A DNA stretch of 60,452 nucleotides, counting the filler. It is 3 parts of 3 records of this genome, joined end to end, with 100 filler letters (N's around TTAATTAATTAA, not from the genome) between each part and the next. Parts side by side here need not be neighbours in the genome. Positions count along the whole stretch, not along the records: positions 40,600 to 60,452 come from SRR20825006_1558; 2 more parts are not named here. One strand, given 5' to 3'. The position numbers and the translations under genes were made by a program. Shown piece after piece: positions 6,770-43,600 of this stretch. How positions within the stretch are numbered: the stretch's first letter is position 1; every line of letters starts with the position of its first letter. The notes beneath the pieces are model-generated. The model searched no databases. It was not told the DNA's origin and worked only from the letters and a program-made list of their open reading frames with translations.

Positions 6770-6945
6770 TTACTGCCCACATTGGTAATTTATTTTTGAC
6801 AAACTCAACACTAATATAATTAGAAAGGGTGAGTTTAGGCTGTAAAAGCAGGCCCTACTTGTATAGGGATCCTTGATCAGCTTGGTAGCCCTAAACCTGT
6901 ATTTTGGAGTTTGTACAAAACTTCTTCCGATGTGGGCTTTTTTTT
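6770..6945 (+). ncRNA. ssrS: 6S RNA (Flavobacteria type)
   Basis: Lies between zapA and rny. Closing stem 6775-6785 (GCCCACATTGG) pairs with 6927-6937 (CCGATGTGGGC), and 6799-6806 pairs with 6907-6914; central bubble and terminal T-run. Ends approximate. Confidence 0.85.
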
Positions 6946-27893: not shown

Positions 27894-27993
27894 NNNNNNN
27901 NNNNNNNNNNNNNNNNNNNNNNNNNNNNNNNNNNNNNTTAATTAATTAANNNNNNNNNNNNNNNNNNNNNNNNNNNNNNNNNNNNNNNNNNNN
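27894..27993. other. artificial contig linker
   Basis: 44 N + TTAATTAATTAA (stops in all six frames) + 44 N. Confidence 0.99.
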
Positions 27994-38197: not shown

Positions 38198-38409
38198 TCG
38201 ATGTACGATATTTTATTTCATCGATTTTCGTTATTTTAATGAAAGAATGTTTCCTGTGGTGGGGTATATTAGTATCGACGGTCGATAAATTATTCTTTCT
38301 ATATATTTCAGTTACTTAGCCGCCTTTACAGGAAATTCATAGTCAGGGGGTTGATCAATTTACATCGTTATTCTATACATCTCTCGCGACATAAATGATC
38401 GCATATCGA
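38198..38409. promoter_or_regulatory. repeated TCG-N5-CGA boxes (putative EctR operators)
   Basis: 38198-38208, 38273-38287 (TATCGACGGTCGATA), 38399-38409; near-match at 38221-38231. Confidence 0.55.
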
Positions 38410-38430
38410 AATAACAGAGCAGGCAGACCG

Positions 38431-38979
38431 ATGAAAATTGCCAACACAAACGGCAATACCGGCCACAAAGCCAACCTGATTATCCGAAAACCCAAGGCCA
38501 CTGATGGTGCGGCAGTCAACAATCTGATCGCCGAGTGCAAGCCTTTGGACGAAAATTCAATGTATTGCAACTTGCTGCAGTGCTCGCATTTTGCGGACAC
38601 ATGCGCGGTTGCCGAACTGGATGGCGAAGCCGTTGGCTTTGTGTCTGGCTACATCGTCCCAAACAAACCTGAGCAGCTTTTTATCTGGCAGGTTGCCGTT
38701 TCCCCGAAAGCCCGTGGCCTTCGGCTCGCGAAACGCCTGATCCTTGACATTCTGGATCGCTCGGCATGCCATAACGTGAATCAGCTGAACACGACGATTA
38801 CGTCGACGAATGCCCCGTCGCAGGGTGTATTCCGTTCCGTCGCACGTGAACTTGGCGCTGACGTTAAACGCAGAGTTCAGTTCGAACGTGAAACGCACTT
38901 CGAAGGTGCCGCTGCCAGTGAAATTCTGTGGCAGATCGGTCCGTTCGAGCGCGAAGACGTCGAACGCGTCGCGGCCTGA
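38431..38979 (+). CDS. ectA: diaminobutyrate acetyltransferase
   Basis: PLDENSMYCNLLQCSHF, LFIWQVAV and TTITSTN. Confidence 0.95.
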   Translation: MKIANTNGNTGHKANLIIRKPKATDGAAVNNLIAECKPLDENSMYCNLLQCSHFADTCAVAELDGEAVGFVSGYIVPNKPEQLFIWQVAVSPKARGLRLAKRLILDILDRSACHNVNQLNTTITSTNAPSQGVFRSVARELGADVKRRVQFERETHFEGAAASEILWQIGPFEREDVERVAA

Positions 38980-39106
38980 TCCGACCGAACCCATTTTCAC
39001 CACCTTGATGAACAAAACGGCGTTGTCCGTCGATGGAACATCCGGTCCGCCGGAACGTTTGGCATGACAGGTGGACTTGACTTTTCCCAATCTGAAAGAG
39101 GGAACT

Positions 39107-40390
39107 ATGACTGTATTTGATCGCCTTGAATCGGAAGTTCAGAGCTACGCACGCTCCTTCCCTGTCACCTTTGATAATGCCGAAGGTGCATGGCTCACCG
39201 ACCTTGATGGCAACCGTTATCTTGATTTCCTTGCTGGTGCTGGCAGCCTTAACTATGGCCACAACCATCCGGTCCTGCAGGAAAAGCTGATTGATTACAT
39301 CAAATCAAACGGCATTACCCATGGTCTGGACATGCATACCAAGGCCAAGGAAGCCTTTCTGACCGCGCTTGAAACCAAAATATTCAAACCGCGTGACATG
39401 GAATACAAAGTTCAGTTCACCGGCCCGACCGGCACCAACGCTGTCGAAGCCGCCCTGAAACTTGCGCGCCGTGTCAAAGGCCGTGAAACCATCATTTCGT
39501 TCACCAACGGCTTCCATGGTTGCACGCTTGGTTCACTTGCCATTACCGGTAATGAGCACCATCGTGGTGCCGCTGGCGTATCGCTTGATAATGCTGTTGC
39601 GGTTCCGTTTGATGGCTATATGGGCGATGGCGCAGATACCACCGAGTATCTTGATCGCGTTCTTTCGGACAATTCCAGCGGTATCGCCCTTCCGGCTGCA
39701 GTGATTGTTGAAACCCTTCAGGGTGAAGGTGGTCTGAACGCTGCTGATTTCGGCTGGTTAAAAAACCTTGAGAAAGTCTGCCGCAAACACGACATCCTGC
39801 TGATTGTCGATGACATTCAGGCTGGTTGTGGTCGTACCGGCACGTTCTTCAGCTTCGAACCGGCCGGCATCAAGCCGGACATGATCACGCTGTCGAAGTC
39901 GCTGTCGGCCTATGGCCTTCCGCTTGCAGTTGTTCTGATCAAGCCGGAATTCGATGTTTGGCATCCGGGTGAACATAACGGCACCTTCCGTGGTAACAAC
40001 CACGCGTTCGTAACTGCCGCGACCGCCCTTGATCATTTCTGGTCAGATGACAAATTTGCAGCCGATGTGCGTGACAAGGCCGAATTCCTTGGCAACCGCC
40101 TTGATGAGATCGCCGAACGTTATGGCGATGGCAAGCTTTATCGCAAAGGCCGCGGCCTGATGCAGGGTATCTGCTTTGAAAGCGGCGAACTGGCATCAAA
40201 AGTCACCAAGGAATGCTTCAAGCATAATCTTGTGATTGAAACCAGTGGTCCGGAAGATGAGGTTGTCAAATGCCTTGTACCGTTGATCATCACCAAGCAA
40301 GATCTTGCACATGGTCTGGACATCCTTGAATTGGCAACGGCCAAAGCCATGGGCAAGGATGTTGTACCAGCCAAAGCAGCAGCTGAATAA
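39107..40390 (+). CDS. ectB: diaminobutyrate--2-oxoglutarate transaminase
   Basis: ESEVQSYARSFP, FTGPTGTNAVEAA and PGEHNGTFRGNN; GAGGG SD before ATG 39107. Confidence 0.97.
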   Translation: MTVFDRLESEVQSYARSFPVTFDNAEGAWLTDLDGNRYLDFLAGAGSLNYGHNHPVLQEKLIDYIKSNGITHGLDMHTKAKEAFLTALETKIFKPRDMEYKVQFTGPTGTNAVEAALKLARRVKGRETIISFTNGFHGCTLGSLAITGNEHHRGAAGVSLDNAVAVPFDGYMGDGADTTEYLDRVLSDNSSGIALPAAVIVETLQGEGGLNAADFGWLKNLEKVCRKHDILLIVDDIQAGCGRTGTFFSFEPAGIKPDMITLSKSLSAYGLPLAVVLIKPEFDVWHPGEHNGTFRGNNHAFVTAATALDHFWSDDKFAADVRDKAEFLGNRLDEIAERYGDGKLYRKGRGLMQGICFESGELASKVTKECFKHNLVIETSGPEDEVVKCLVPLIITKQDLAHGLDILELATAKAMGKDVVPAKAAAE

Positions 40391-40499: not shown

Positions 40500-40599
40500 N
40501 NNNNNNNNNNNNNNNNNNNNNNNNNNNNNNNNNNNNNNNNNNNTTAATTAATTAANNNNNNNNNNNNNNNNNNNNNNNNNNNNNNNNNNNNNNNNNNNN
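40500..40599. other. artificial contig linker
   Basis: 44 N + TTAATTAATTAA + 44 N. Confidence 0.99.
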
Positions 40600-41724
40600 A
40601 AATCTATCGATGCGATGATTCCTGTAGGTCGTGGTCAGCGTGAGCTTGTAATTGGTGACCGTCAGACAGGTAAGACTACTGTTTGTATTGATACCATTTT
40701 GAATCAAAAAGAATTTTATGATGCTGGAGAGCCTGTTTATTGTATCTACGTTGCTGTAGGTCAAAAGGCTTCTACTGTAGCTGGTATCGCTAGTGTACTT
40801 GAAGAAAAAGGTGCAATGGCTTATACTACAATCGTAGCTGCAAATGCATCAGATCCTGCTCCTATGCAGGTATACGCTCCATTCGCAGGTGCTGCAATTG
40901 GAGAGTATTTCAGAGATACAGGTCGTCCTGCTTTAATCATCTATGATGATTTATCTAAGCAAGCGGTTGCCTATCGTGAGGTTTCACTTTTATTACGTCG
41001 TCCACCGGGTCGTGAGGCGTATCCTGGAGACGTTTTCTTCCTGCACTCTCGTTTATTAGAGCGTGCTGCAAAAGTGATTGCTGATGATGATATCGCAAAG
41101 AACATGAACGATCTTCCTGATAGCTTGAAGCCTATCGTTAAAGGTGGAGGATCATTAACAGCGCTTCCAATTATCGAAACTCAAGCAGGGGACGTTTCAG
41201 CATATATCCCAACAAACGTAATCTCGATTACTGATGGTCAGATCTTCCTTGATGGTGACTTATTCAACTCAGGTGTACGTCCGGCGATTAACGTAGGTAT
41301 TTCAGTATCACGTGTGGGTGGTTCTGCTCAGATCAAGTCGATGAAGAAAGTATCTGGTACGCTTAAGTTAGACCAGGCAGCTTTCCGTGAACTAGAAGCA
41401 TTTGCTAAGTTTGGTTCAGACCTTGATGCAGCTACCTTGAGTGTAATTGAAAAAGGTAAGCGTAATGTTGAGATCTTAAAGCAAGCGGAAAACACACCGT
41501 ATACTGTAGAAGATCAAATCGCGATTATCTACGCAGGTTCTAAAAACCTATTGCGCAATGTGCCTATCGATAAAGTAAAAGAGTTTGAAACAGACTATCT
41601 TGAACTTTTGAATGCTAAGCACAGAGCTACTTTAGATACGCTGAAAGCAGGTAAGCTTACAGATGAGGTGATCGATACCTTGACTACTGTAGCAAATGAC
41701 CTTGCTGCTCGATATAAGAAGTAA
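40600..41724 (+). CDS. atpA: ATP synthase F1 alpha subunit (5'-truncated)
   Basis: [21 protein letters not shown] and [13 protein letters not shown]. Confidence 0.98.
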
Positions 41725-41729
41725 TTCTA

Positions 41730-42118
41730 AATTCTGAATGTAGAATTTAGATGGCTTATGTTCCTAGAAATAATGCGATAGTTGATAAATCCTTTCATTT
41801 TGCGTGTGAAATAGTTGTTTACACACAACAATTAAAAGCCAAAGGTTTTTATGAGATTGGATCACAACTTTTAAAATCTGGAACAAGTATTGGTGCTAAT
41901 GTGCGTGAATCGCAACGCGCAGTAAGTACCAAAGATTTTAAGAATAAATTGAGTATAGCTTTAAAAGAAGCAGAAGAAACTCAATATTGGTTGCAAATTA
42001 TTGAACATACTGAAATAGCTGAAGTATCTAAAGCTCTTTCGGAAAACTGTGAGGAATTAATTAGGTTGTTGGTTAGTATAATCAAAAACTCATAATTCTC
42101 AATTCAACATTTTGAATT
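41730..42118. mobile_element. candidate four-helix-bundle gene cassette bounded by imperfect 22-bp inverted repeats
   Basis: 41730-41751 vs 42097-42118 are 18/22 reverse-complementary; interrupts the usual atpA-atpG adjacency. Mobility is inferred. Confidence 0.5.
41751..42095 (+). CDS. four helix bundle protein (23S rRNA IVS protein / Avd-like family)
   Basis: QLLKSGTSIGANVRESQ...DFKNKLSIALKEAEETQYWL. Confidence 0.93.
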   Translation: MAYVPRNNAIVDKSFHFACEIVVYTQQLKAKGFYEIGSQLLKSGTSIGANVRESQRAVSTKDFKNKLSIALKEAEETQYWLQIIEHTEIAEVSKALSENCEELIRLLVSIIKNS

Positions 42119-42124
42119 AAATAA

Positions 42125-43000
42125 ATGGCAAATTTAAAGGAAATACGTAACCGAATTTCATCAGTATCTTCAACGATGCAGATCACAAGCGCTATGAAAA
42201 TGGTGTCGGCTGCTAAGTTGAAGAAGGCTCAAGATGCTATTACAGCAATGCGCCCTTATTCTGATAAATTAACCGAGTTGCTTCAAAATCTTAGCGCTTC
42301 GATGGAAGGAGACAGCGGAAGCCGTTTTGCTGAAGAGCGTCCTGTTGAAAAAGTGCTTGTAATTGCGATCTCTTCAAATAGAGGTCTTGCAGGGGCTTTC
42401 AACTCAAACATCGTAAAAGAAGCTAAGAACATTGCAGATACTGTTTACGCCGGTAAAGAAGTTCACTTCTTAACCATTGGTAAAAAAGCAAATGACATTC
42501 TGAAGAAATCACACACAGTGATTTTTAATGATAGTGAGATCTTTGATGATTTAACGTTTGAGAATGTTGAAGCAATTGCTGAGCGTGCAATGAATTTATT
42601 TACCGAAGGAACTTACGATAAAGTTGAATTGCTTTACAATTTCTTCAAAAATGCCGCTACACAAATTGTTACTCGCGAGCAGTTTTTACCTATTGTTCCT
42701 TTAAAAGAGCAATTTGAAGAGGTAGCTCCGGCAAACACTACAGATTATATCTTTGAGCCTTCTAAAGAAGAGATTGTAAAGCAGCTTATACCTAAAGCTT
42801 TAAAAACACAATTCTTCAAAGGAATAAGAGATTCTGTAGCAAGTGAGCACGGTGCACGTATGACAGCGATGCACAAAGCAACAGATAATGCGACTGAGTT
42901 GAGAGATCAGCTTAAACTAACGTATAACAAAGCGCGTCAGGCTGCAATTACTAACGAGATCCTTGAGATCGTAGGTGGTGCAGAAGCATTAAACAACTAG
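42125..43000 (+). CDS. atpG: ATP synthase F1 gamma subunit
   Basis: QITSAMKMVSAAK, SEHGARMTAM and RQAAITNEILEI. Confidence 0.98.
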   Translation: MANLKEIRNRISSVSSTMQITSAMKMVSAAKLKKAQDAITAMRPYSDKLTELLQNLSASMEGDSGSRFAEERPVEKVLVIAISSNRGLAGAFNSNIVKEAKNIADTVYAGKEVHFLTIGKKANDILKKSHTVIFNDSEIFDDLTFENVEAIAERAMNLFTEGTYDKVELLYNFFKNAATQIVTREQFLPIVPLKEQFEEVAPANTTDYIFEPSKEEIVKQLIPKALKTQFFKGIRDSVASEHGARMTAMHKATDNATELRDQLKLTYNKARQAAITNEILEIVGGAEALNN

Positions 43001-43177: not shown

Positions 43178-43600
43178 ATGAAAAACATATTATCAGCTTT
43201 GTTCTTATTTACTTTATTCTCTTGTGGGGGAAGCAACCAACTCGTTAAGAACCCGCCTTTTGAGATTGAAAAAACGACTCGTAAATCTGGGGTTAAGGGC
43301 CTCGAAAACATTCGTTTTGTAGCCAAAAATATTCCCCAAGAGGTAAGCTTTGAATCTTTATATTTTCAGCAGAAAAAATCTAAAGTACTTTGGGAAGATA
43401 CCAATCTGTATTATGCCACTTTCTCGACAGTGCCTGCGAATAGTAAAGACCGCGTATTATCAGTAAATCGTGAAGATGAAGCGAAAAATCCTTTACCGCA
43501 AATTCCGGTTGAAGTGCCTTTTAAAATCAAAGCAAATGAAGCCTTATTAGAATACAAAGTAGGAGATAAGACCTTTTATACCGTTCTGGAGGTTAAATAG
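43178..43600 (+). CDS. hypothetical lipoprotein
   Basis: Lipobox LFSC; TAGCTTTG -7 element at 43150-43157. Confidence 0.75.
   Translation: MKNILSALFLFTLFSCGGSNQLVKNPPFEIEKTTRKSGVKGLENIRFVAKNIPQEVSFESLYFQQKKSKVLWEDTNLYYATFSTVPANSKDRVLSVNREDEAKNPLPQIPVEVPFKIKANEALLEYKVGDKTFYTVLEVK

Follow-up and report, generated by a model that had tools for sequence, protein, structure and literature searches.

A four-helix-bundle gene between inverted heptamer arrays at the atpA-atpG junction, a candidate operon-borne counterpart of 23S rRNA intervening sequences

What separates the genes for the alpha and gamma subunits of the ATP synthase in a Flavobacteriia-like genome? In the stretch of DNA analysed here (the window; 60,452 nt), we find an insert of 403 bp between atpA and atpG, in which a small four-helix-bundle (4HB) open reading frame (ORF), encoded on the same strand as both neighbours, is flanked by spacers of just 26 nt (after atpA) and 29 nt (before atpG). 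The explanation we prefer, though our confidence in it is no better than evenly balanced, is that of an old, frequently lost and occasionally swapped cassette in an operon transcript, similar to the intervening sequences (IVSs) of 23S rRNA, in which a 4HB gene is combined with reverse-complement heptamer arrays and the protein probably binds these repeats. On our best reading, which leans on analogy, the cassette would be the operon-borne counterpart of the ORF-carrying 23S rRNA IVSs.

Both spacers are composed of 7-nt units of the AATTCnn type, as the original prediction from the sequence had it. Identity at a lag of 7 nt is 0.68 in the left flank versus 0.26 at other lags, and 0.45 versus 0.31 in the right flank; arrays of period 7 called by Tandem Repeats Finder (TRF) are confined, within the window, to the left flank (41723-41739 and 41736-41751). 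The inverted repeat noted between the flanks was recovered as described, with 41730-41751 matching the reverse complement of 42097-42118 at 18 of 22 positions, and as RNA the two sides can form a 19-bp duplex of -15.2 kcal/mol that none of 200 shuffles equalled. Each flank also begins with TAATTCTnAATTC on the preceding stop codon (at 41722 and 42093), again as predicted; these are the only two occurrences in the window, against a chance expectation of 0.02, and 0/100 shuffles yielded two or more. A hairpin had been proposed for each flank individually. The left one is robust: its 11-bp stem pairs 41726-41736 with 41741-41751, includes the A of the ATG and reaches -10.1 kcal/mol (z -5.2, 0/200 shuffles as good), but its right-hand counterpart, considered further below, is weak. 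Since the unit includes a palindrome, GAATTC, the two flanks repeat each other in direct orientation no less than in inverted orientation. The ORF is indeed more AT-rich than its neighbours (GC content 31.9%, compared with 42.3% in the atpA part and 38.9% in atpG).

The encoded protein belongs, as anticipated, to the family that includes the proteins of 23S rRNA IVSs, since its matches to PF05635 (2.9e-22, 79.3 bits; curated cut-off 33.8) and TIGR02436 'four helix bundle protein' (3.5e-27, 94.8 bits; cut-off 24) lie far above the cut-offs. Its sole sequence match among solved structures is PDB 2RLD (7.2e-23), an entry of 5 chains. An AlphaFold2 (AF2) model built from 14 junction homologues (pLDDT 91) has helices at residues 9-30, 34-55, 60-87 and 94-113, and superposes on 2RLD (BT_0352) at template modelling (TM) scores of 0.85-0.90 and on 2GSC (Xcc0516) at 0.78. 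These two uncharacterised 4HB proteins of the 'S23 ribosomal protein family' thus share the fold of the model, and Xcc0516 is described as a homopentameric toroid (PMC4990558). The suggested relationship to Avd, the accessory protein of diversity-generating retroelements (DGRs), stands as far as the fold is concerned (TM 0.65-0.69 against 4DWL and the DGR ribonucleoprotein 8UB7), and homology between PF05635 and Avd is stated in PMC10053308; at the level of sequence it is faint (Foldseek E 0.3, 13-15% identity). In contrast to a DGR, the window gene has atpA and atpG as its immediate neighbours, and neither a reverse transcriptase nor a template or variable repeat adjoins it. The family is large, with 7,356 representative clusters matching at E <= 1e-3 and 1,361 at E <= 1e-10. 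Only 2 do so at E <= 1e-30, so the atp-junction subfamily is narrow. No PADLOC model matches the protein, and only 2 records in a phage collection do, both from uncultured phages.

How widespread is this arrangement at the same junction? A single AtpG scan supplied 80 Flavobacteriaceae loci for comparison (1.5 Mb in total), 16 of which carry a 4HB homologue, 63-70% identical to the window protein (60-70% for the 13 intact copies), exactly between atpA and atpG. The hosts are Aquimarina, Maribacter, Flagellimonas, Croceitalea, Confluentibacter, Aestuariivivens, Altibacter and four metagenome-assembled genomes; three of the copies are broken, by frameshifts (L022, L046) or otherwise disrupted (L030). 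At all 17 filled sites, the window included, tandem heptamers on the left run into the ATG and reverse-complement heptamers begin on the stop codon (for example, ..TCATAACTCA.. or ..TCATAATTC..), the left units being of the GAGTTAT/GAGTGCA type in one group of loci and of the GAATTCA/GAATTCT type in the other. Among intact copies, lag-7 identity amounts to 0.45-0.80 on the left and 0.39-0.83 on the right, versus 0.16-0.32 at other lags, and the left-right duplex beats at least 195 of 200 shuffles in 14/14. When the G of the ATG is paired to the C of the final TCA codon (..TCATAA), 16-19 of 21 positions pair in seven of the nine group-B loci, compared with just 3-11 at offsets that are not multiples of 7. 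In whole-cassette folds of L052 and L021, both the minimum free energy (MFE) and the centroid structure contain a stem of ~30 bp with the complete ORF in its loop. Outside the junction, tblastn of the protein revealed no second copy in the window, and a hidden Markov model (HMM) of the 14 junction proteins, run against 4,349 ORFs of the 80 loci and the window, retrieved only the junction copies at E < 0.1.

The other 64 of the 80 junctions are empty, including those of the two closest relatives, Flavimarina (L001; AtpG 90% identical) and Leeuwenhoekiella (L002; 89%), and both states are present within the same genera. Comparing atpA-atpG junctions across relatives, the check that had been proposed, also produced a clean filled/empty pair: the 36-nt empty spacer of L002 reads like the beginning of the left arm in the window fused to the terminal part of the right arm, and the empty site of L049 relates to the filled L021 in the same way. 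The 36-nt spacers of L001 and L002 are filled by the same AATTCnn heptamers, and the core of the window's left arm closely resembles the empty-site hairpin of L002. In the window lineage, the heptamers therefore belong to the spacer and not only to the insert. We observed no clean target-site duplication at the window insert; TAATTCTnAATTC does not qualify, because it is part of heptamers that the empty site carries at both of its ends as well.

Empty spacers range from 12 to 125 nt (median 81); 50/64 fold at z <= -2 and 29/64 have a clear period of 7, common hairpin arms being built from AGTACTG-, AGTATTG- or GTATATT-type units. TRF arrays of period 7 (at least 2.9 copies) reach a density of 4.48/kb in the junctions versus 0.041/kb elsewhere in the 1.5 Mb, and of the 62 arrays outside junctions, 12 lie directly upstream of atpA. 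There, G-poor TCTAACA-type arrays abut the atpA start in at least ten relatives (e.g., L006:8302-8333, L009:1175-1206, L025:1623-1648 and L053:8298-8328); the atpH-atpA spacer is therefore heptamer-built too. A different palindrome, similar to a miniature inverted-repeat transposable element (MITE; GTCATTCC...GGAATGACA, ~100 nt), occupies the atpA-atpG spacer of L011, L020, L023, L032, L068 and L074, which are Flagellimonas/Muricauda-type genomes. Hairpin elements seem to accumulate preferentially in the atpA-atpG spacer. Away from the atp genes, long arrays were seen in L034 (12195-12480, eleven copies of TGATGTC adjoining twelve of TGAAAGT), L017 (20759-20858, GGGAGTT/GAGTTAn runs) and L038 (384-477, an inverted pair AAGAGCC...TCTTGGC), and no 4HB gene was detected near them within the fetched stretches.

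Is the combination of gene and arms peculiar to the ATP synthase operon? A tblastn search of plasmids with the window protein matched 32 records, 20 of which were fetched; after removal of two segmental duplicates, 18 independent loci from five phyla remained (12 cyanobacterial, 2 from Cytophagia, 1 each from Treponema, Monoglobus and Chlorohelix, and a second Nostoc punctiforme plasmid). Three identical N. flagelliforme copies, entertained as independent insertions, were rejected as such, being segmental duplicates with the same neighbours. The original prediction had named copies lacking such flanks as evidence that would speak against it. By eye, the ORF is flanked at all 18 loci by tandem heptamers, those on one side being the reverse complement of those on the other, and the unit differs at every locus (e.g., TTAGTGA x15, GTCGGAG, CCAGTGA, GAAAGnn x41 or AATTCAA). 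Under an objective TRF rule, arrays flank both sides in 16/18 and their units are related by reverse complementarity in 15/18, where a rough estimate of chance gives ~2; the left-right duplex beats at least 198 of 200 shuffles in 16/18. As a control, three 50-kb plasmid regions (150 kb, 119 annotated genes) were scanned, and 10 of their 15 period-7 arrays lie no more than 350 nt from the four 4HB genes there. Both neighbours are on the strand of the 4HB gene at ten of the plasmid loci, the downstream one only at four and neither at four. Among the surrounding operons are those for RND (resistance-nodulation-division) efflux, type I restriction, helicase-methylase, DUF1156/DUF499, cas1/cas2 and xisH/xisI. 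The supposed preference for highly expressed operons is hence not general, the plasmid copies residing in restriction-modification, CRISPR, efflux and mobile-element operons.

Individual loci deserve mention. In L095 and L096 (Nostoc and Anabaena plasmids), the 4HB gene and its heptamer arms lie antisense between cas2 and cas1, and '23S rRNA IVP' figures among CRISPR-linked domains in a figure legend of PMC10910872. Other plasmid copies neighbour xisH/xisI, a tyrosine recombinase or Tn7-like genes. On the Monoglobus plasmid (L087:998-1339), an unannotated and apparently broken 4HB frame between the type I restriction genes hsdS and hsdR retains its AATTAGG / AATTCCT inverted heptamer arms. In the literature, a chromosomal four helix bundle gene of F. 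columnare lies between gmk and nadD with gaps of 35 and 33 nt (PMC5524665, Table 5), and a family member is transcribed in F. psychrophilum (a table row of PMC5787105).

When did the cassette reach the atp operon? On a tree of AtpA and AtpG (79 rows; L031 and L055 were dropped for incomplete atpA), the filled state changes 13 times, at least ten of which are forced by well-supported branches; random labels gave a mean of 15.6 changes, and 15/500 shuffles were as low as 13. Presence on the host tree is very patchy, and with 64/80 junctions empty the gene is not fixed at this site. The 14 intact proteins form two supported groups that broadly track host clades, and all Flavobacteriaceae copies constitute one clade (98/94) among 31 family members. 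Both unit types (AATTCnn and GAGTnnn/nnnACTC) occur inside this clade, and both arms have therefore changed sequence together, a joint change that we regard as the strongest evidence for selected complementarity. A tight code between protein and heptamer unit was rejected at this depth: close relatives share units, but the AATTC type is found in three separate clades (3 changes). The ratio of nonsynonymous to synonymous substitution rates (dN/dS) is 0.02-0.08 within groups and 0.17 between the window and L058, and judged by these ratios the intact ORF copies are under strong purifying selection.

Identity at third codon positions averages 0.488 for the cassette versus 0.472 for the flanking genes (cassette higher in 53/91 pairs). 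Cassettes have diverged about as much as their flanks, and most copies would thus be as old as the species splits; together with the single clade, this is more easily reconciled with a single ancient arrival and many subsequent losses than with repeated targeting. From the original picture of a transposase-free cassette that targets gene boundaries, we accordingly retain the recurrent unit of gene and arms (17/17 junctions, 18/18 plasmid loci by eye) without a transposase, but not the repeated targeting. Nor is there a sign of recent mobility, for which the flanks had been proposed as recognition sites: neither the window nor the 1.5 Mb from relatives contains a second copy.

Two cases point to exchange of cassettes. 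Between L021 (Aquimarina sp. SS2-1) and L028 (A. rubra), the cassette has a dS of 0 and a dN of 0.004, compared with a dS of 0.48 in atpG, and atpA is 97.5-98.8% identical, which indicates a putative recombination breakpoint inside atpG with the cassette carried along. The filled L008 falls within a set of Maribacter whose hairpin is homologous but ORF-less, and the whole spacer sets it apart from its sister L003, to which it is ~95% identical in atpA and atpG: L003 has an 81-nt AGTACTG-type hairpin, L008 a 393-nt cassette with GAGTTAT arms. No clear imported recombination tract surrounds the L008 cassette; in aligned windows, its flanks are closest to L003 right to the ends of both genes, apart from an ambiguous stretch of ~100 nt at the end of atpA, and this result favours neither site-specific nor homologous exchange. 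Lateral transfer of the L063 cassette was also considered, and we do not count it as evidence (approximately unbiased (AU) test, p 0.055, with the group picked after seeing the tree). In our reading of this history, a single entry into the atpA-atpG spacer would have occurred long ago in an ancestor of these Flavobacteriaceae, and the cassette would since have been lost at least ~10 times and now and then replaced through recombination.

The features of the junction are listed in Table 1. The window joins three contigs through linkers (27894-27993 and 40500-40599), each consisting of N44, TTAATTAATTAA (a 12-nt all-frame stop) and N44, and the 4HB junction lies on the third contig (40600-60452, ~40% GC), which begins within atpA, ~1.1 kb from its start. 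Directly 3' of atpG, at 43178-43600 (+), follows a 140-aa ORF with a lipoprotein-like N-terminus and no Pfam or NCBIfam match. Both flanking contigs are Flavobacteriia-like with ~40% GC, and a 6S-Flavo RNA (RF01685) at 6803-6912 (+; 102.6 bits vs a gathering score of 85) supports a flavobacterial origin of the first. The middle contig (27994-40499) has 52% GC and encodes EctA (38395-38979) and EctB (39071-40390). The assembly probably mixes organisms, and the bin may be mixed or contaminated; this has no effect on the 4HB finding, because the junction is well within its contig.

Table 1. Annotated features around the atpA-atpG junction (positions in the window)
Feature	Position	Strand	Basis
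atpA, 3' part (ATP synthase alpha subunit)	40600..41724	+	PF00006 8.4e-71, PF00306 3.3e-41; cut by contig start after N linker ending 40599
Left arm: atpA stop codon, AATTCnn-type heptamers, ATG of the 4HB gene	41722..41753	+	lag-7 identity, TRF, hairpin 41726-41751
4HB gene (114 aa), PF05635/TIGR02436 '23S rRNA intervening sequence protein' family	41751..42095	+	HMM matches, AF2 model
Right arm: 4HB stop codon, AATTCnn-type heptamers, atpG ATG	42093..42127	+	lag-7 identity; weak hairpin 42101-42118
atpG (ATP synthase gamma subunit)	42125..43000	+	PF00231 2e-97; 89-90% identical to Flavimarina and Leeuwenhoekiella AtpG

The closest known parallel is found in ribosomal RNA. In Coxiella burnetii, a 23S rRNA IVS harbours the S23p ORF, looped out by terminal inverted repeats that form a stem of 28 bp, and RNase III excises the IVS; two to three tandem heptamers (GACAGAT), variable in number between strains, directly precede the ATG, and S23p is thought not to be produced (PMC4990558). 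ORF-bearing IVSs of Leptospira, Xanthomonas and Brucella are cited in the same article, as is an older proposal that the IVS ORF is a mobility component. The Coxiella IVS and the atp cassette are alike in carrying a PF05635 (S23p) ORF on the sense strand of an abundant host transcript, in their complementary termini (a stem of 28 bp in Coxiella, ~30 bp predicted in L052 and L021) and in tandem heptamers before the ATG, a decay-prone ORF and sporadic presence. They differ in location, IVSs residing in helix 25 or 45 of 23S rRNA and the cassette in the spacer of a protein-coding operon. The cassette is further set apart by the strong purifying selection apparent on its ORF, by start and stop being embedded in the arms and, in the window copy, by short arms able to fold locally. 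Moreover, RNase III cleavage has been shown for IVSs; for the atp cassette it is predicted. An Rfam scan at gathering thresholds, covering the window and four loci, returned nothing at the junction and no rRNA match in the window.

A second parallel concerns the arms. In Beggiatoaceae, Cyanobacteria and five Bacteroidetes, direct repeats of TAACTGA and other heptamers have been described ahead of start codons (MacGregor 2015, PMC4679880), and hairpins of 7-bp repeats lie between hupS and hupL of cyanobacteria, with proposed roles in transcript stability or translational coupling (PMC2670836). The window flanks, with tandem 7-nt units beside a start codon and a left hairpin at z -5.2, fit this type of intergenic repeat. 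Common to these short tandemly repeated repetitive (STRR) or TAACTGA repeats and to our arms are the tandem units before start codons or in intercistronic hairpins and the variable copy number, and the empty atpA-atpG spacers are similar. In contrast, an inverted pair of arrays surrounds an ORF here, and the available portions of PMC4679880 and PMC2670836 draw no link to 4HB genes; the phrase 'four helix bundle protein' is absent from the former. The exact MacGregor heptamer occurs on the Bernardetia plasmid (L102:2752-2787, TAACTGA x5.1), 22 kb from that plasmid's 4HB gene. A transposon, insertion sequence or MITE offers less of a likeness, in that the insert comprises a 114-aa ORF only and has no other copy in the window or the 1.5 Mb.

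How might the cassette function? It would be transcribed together with atpA and atpG, its arms supplying the stop-to-start context such that atpA, the 4HB ORF and atpG could be read serially. The arms would form double-stranded RNA, in relatives as a predicted stem of ~30 bp from AUG to stop codon, and in the AATTC-type window copy each arm could also fold on itself. By analogy with IVSs, this stem may be an element for processing, stability or translation gating, most likely a substrate of RNase III, and it would let the insert sit harmlessly in an essential operon. The 4HB protein, putatively pentameric and related to Avd, probably binds to the repeats, as RNA or as DNA.

Several observations weigh against this explanation. 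The window copy has short arms, and its right hairpin (42101-42107 with 42112-42118) attains only -3.2 kcal/mol (z -1.7, 16/200 shuffles as good). MFE and centroid folds of the window copy keep two local hairpins and no long-range stem; the earlier idea that the ends pair and loop the ORF out, as in an IVS, agrees with the stems predicted in L052 and L021, and in this copy the 19-bp pairing would be possible although the predicted fold does not contain it. ORF-less heptamer hairpins exist in many relatives, and the arms could be a feature of the host spacer that merely houses the gene; arrays of period 7 also precede atpA and other genes. The plasmid sample stems from a single tblastn search and is cyanobacterial in 12 of 18 cases, L084 and L096 fail the duplex test, and L089, L099 and L100 fail the test for reverse-complement units. 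Finally, co-transcription with a host operon is not universal: at four of the 18 plasmid loci, the 4HB gene runs antisense to the genes on either side.

Alternatively, the cassette could be mobile at the DNA level, with the 4HB protein as mobility factor, the inverted heptamer arrays (perhaps in hairpin or cruciform form) as sites of recombination or recognition and the ORF-less hairpins as non-autonomous derivatives. We consider this unlikely. It would account for the patchy presence with its 13 changes (at least ten forced), for the Maribacter sisters L008 and L003, which differ by their entire spacer while their flanks are closest to each other, and for family members in many unrelated operons of five phyla; the gmk/4HB/nadD slot of F. 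columnare (PMC5524665) and the older view of the IVS ORF as a mobility component (PMC4990558) are in line with it as well. However, neither the window nor the 1.5 Mb holds a second or near-identical copy, the three identical N. flagelliforme copies are segmental duplications, and third-position identity hardly departs from that of the flanks (0.488 vs 0.472; higher in 53/91 pairs). The AU test does not reject a host-congruent placement of L063 (p 0.055), and the cassette displays neither a nuclease or recombinase domain nor a clear target-site duplication.

We likewise doubt that the 4HB gene is a resident host gene, an accessory factor or regulator situated in the loop of a pre-existing intercistronic atp hairpin with a role in translational coupling, mRNA stability or the alpha:gamma ratio. 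That ORF and inverted heptamers also occur in unrelated operons, other phyla and a 23S rRNA IVS argues against it, as does the clustering of control-region arrays at 4HB genes; the layout recurs outside atp, and the arms therefore go with the 4HB gene rather than with atp. Absence from 64/80 relatives and three broken copies speak against an important host role. Such a role would nevertheless fit the strong purifying selection on the ORF, its single origin with a broadly host-like gene tree, the hairpins, often heptamer-built, in most empty relatives, the arrays before atpA and the stability or coupling function proposed for the hupS-hupL hairpins (PMC2670836).

Chance or artefact, namely AT-rich low-complexity repeats and a spurious or misassembled ORF insert, is refuted: the window does concatenate contigs, one apparently from another organism, and its right hairpin alone is not significant, yet TAATTCTnAATTC occurs twice where 0.02 is expected, 16 independent genomes have the same insert between atpA and atpG, the HMM scores exceed the curated cut-offs by far and the junction lies well inside its contig.

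Beyond the IVS-like cassette itself, one may speculate, as a long shot, that 4HB 'IVS proteins' and heptamer hairpins are two halves of one widespread selfish and transposase-free system. A pentameric ring would bind ~4-5 units of 7 nt and make, maintain or move hairpins in loops of host transcripts (rRNA, operon spacers), ORF-bearing cassettes being autonomous and ORF-less hairpins (STRR-type repeats, ORF-less IVSs, empty atpA-atpG hairpins) non-autonomous. Ring-shaped RNA-binding proteins bind spaced triplets, which provides the analogy for such a ring. If true, the 4HB-heptamer system would represent a class of transposase-free elements and would explain repeats left unexplained in the accessible text of PMC4679880 and PMC2670836.

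IVSs, the 4HB family and heptamer repeats are each known. The cassette would be an IVS-type element in an mRNA, and the family-wide regularity of gene and repeats that it carries was not found in print and is, to that extent, new; in the open-access literature, we found no stated general link between the 4HB family and inverted heptamer arrays, only the description of a single organism, Coxiella. The atp locus and its relatives thereby join three puzzles that have been treated separately, namely the ORFs of 23S IVSs, intergenic heptamer repeats and hairpins, and a large, Avd-related 4HB family devoid of an assigned function. A 4HB gene wrapped in inverted heptamer arrays is seen in rRNA and in ATP synthase, restriction, CRISPR and efflux operons alike, and natural filled and empty sister strains exist among cultivable marine Flavobacteriaceae. 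Together, this suggests that IVS-like elements can live in essential mRNAs, which is relevant to operon annotation, to the reading of intercistronic hairpins and to the transposase-free spread of small genes.

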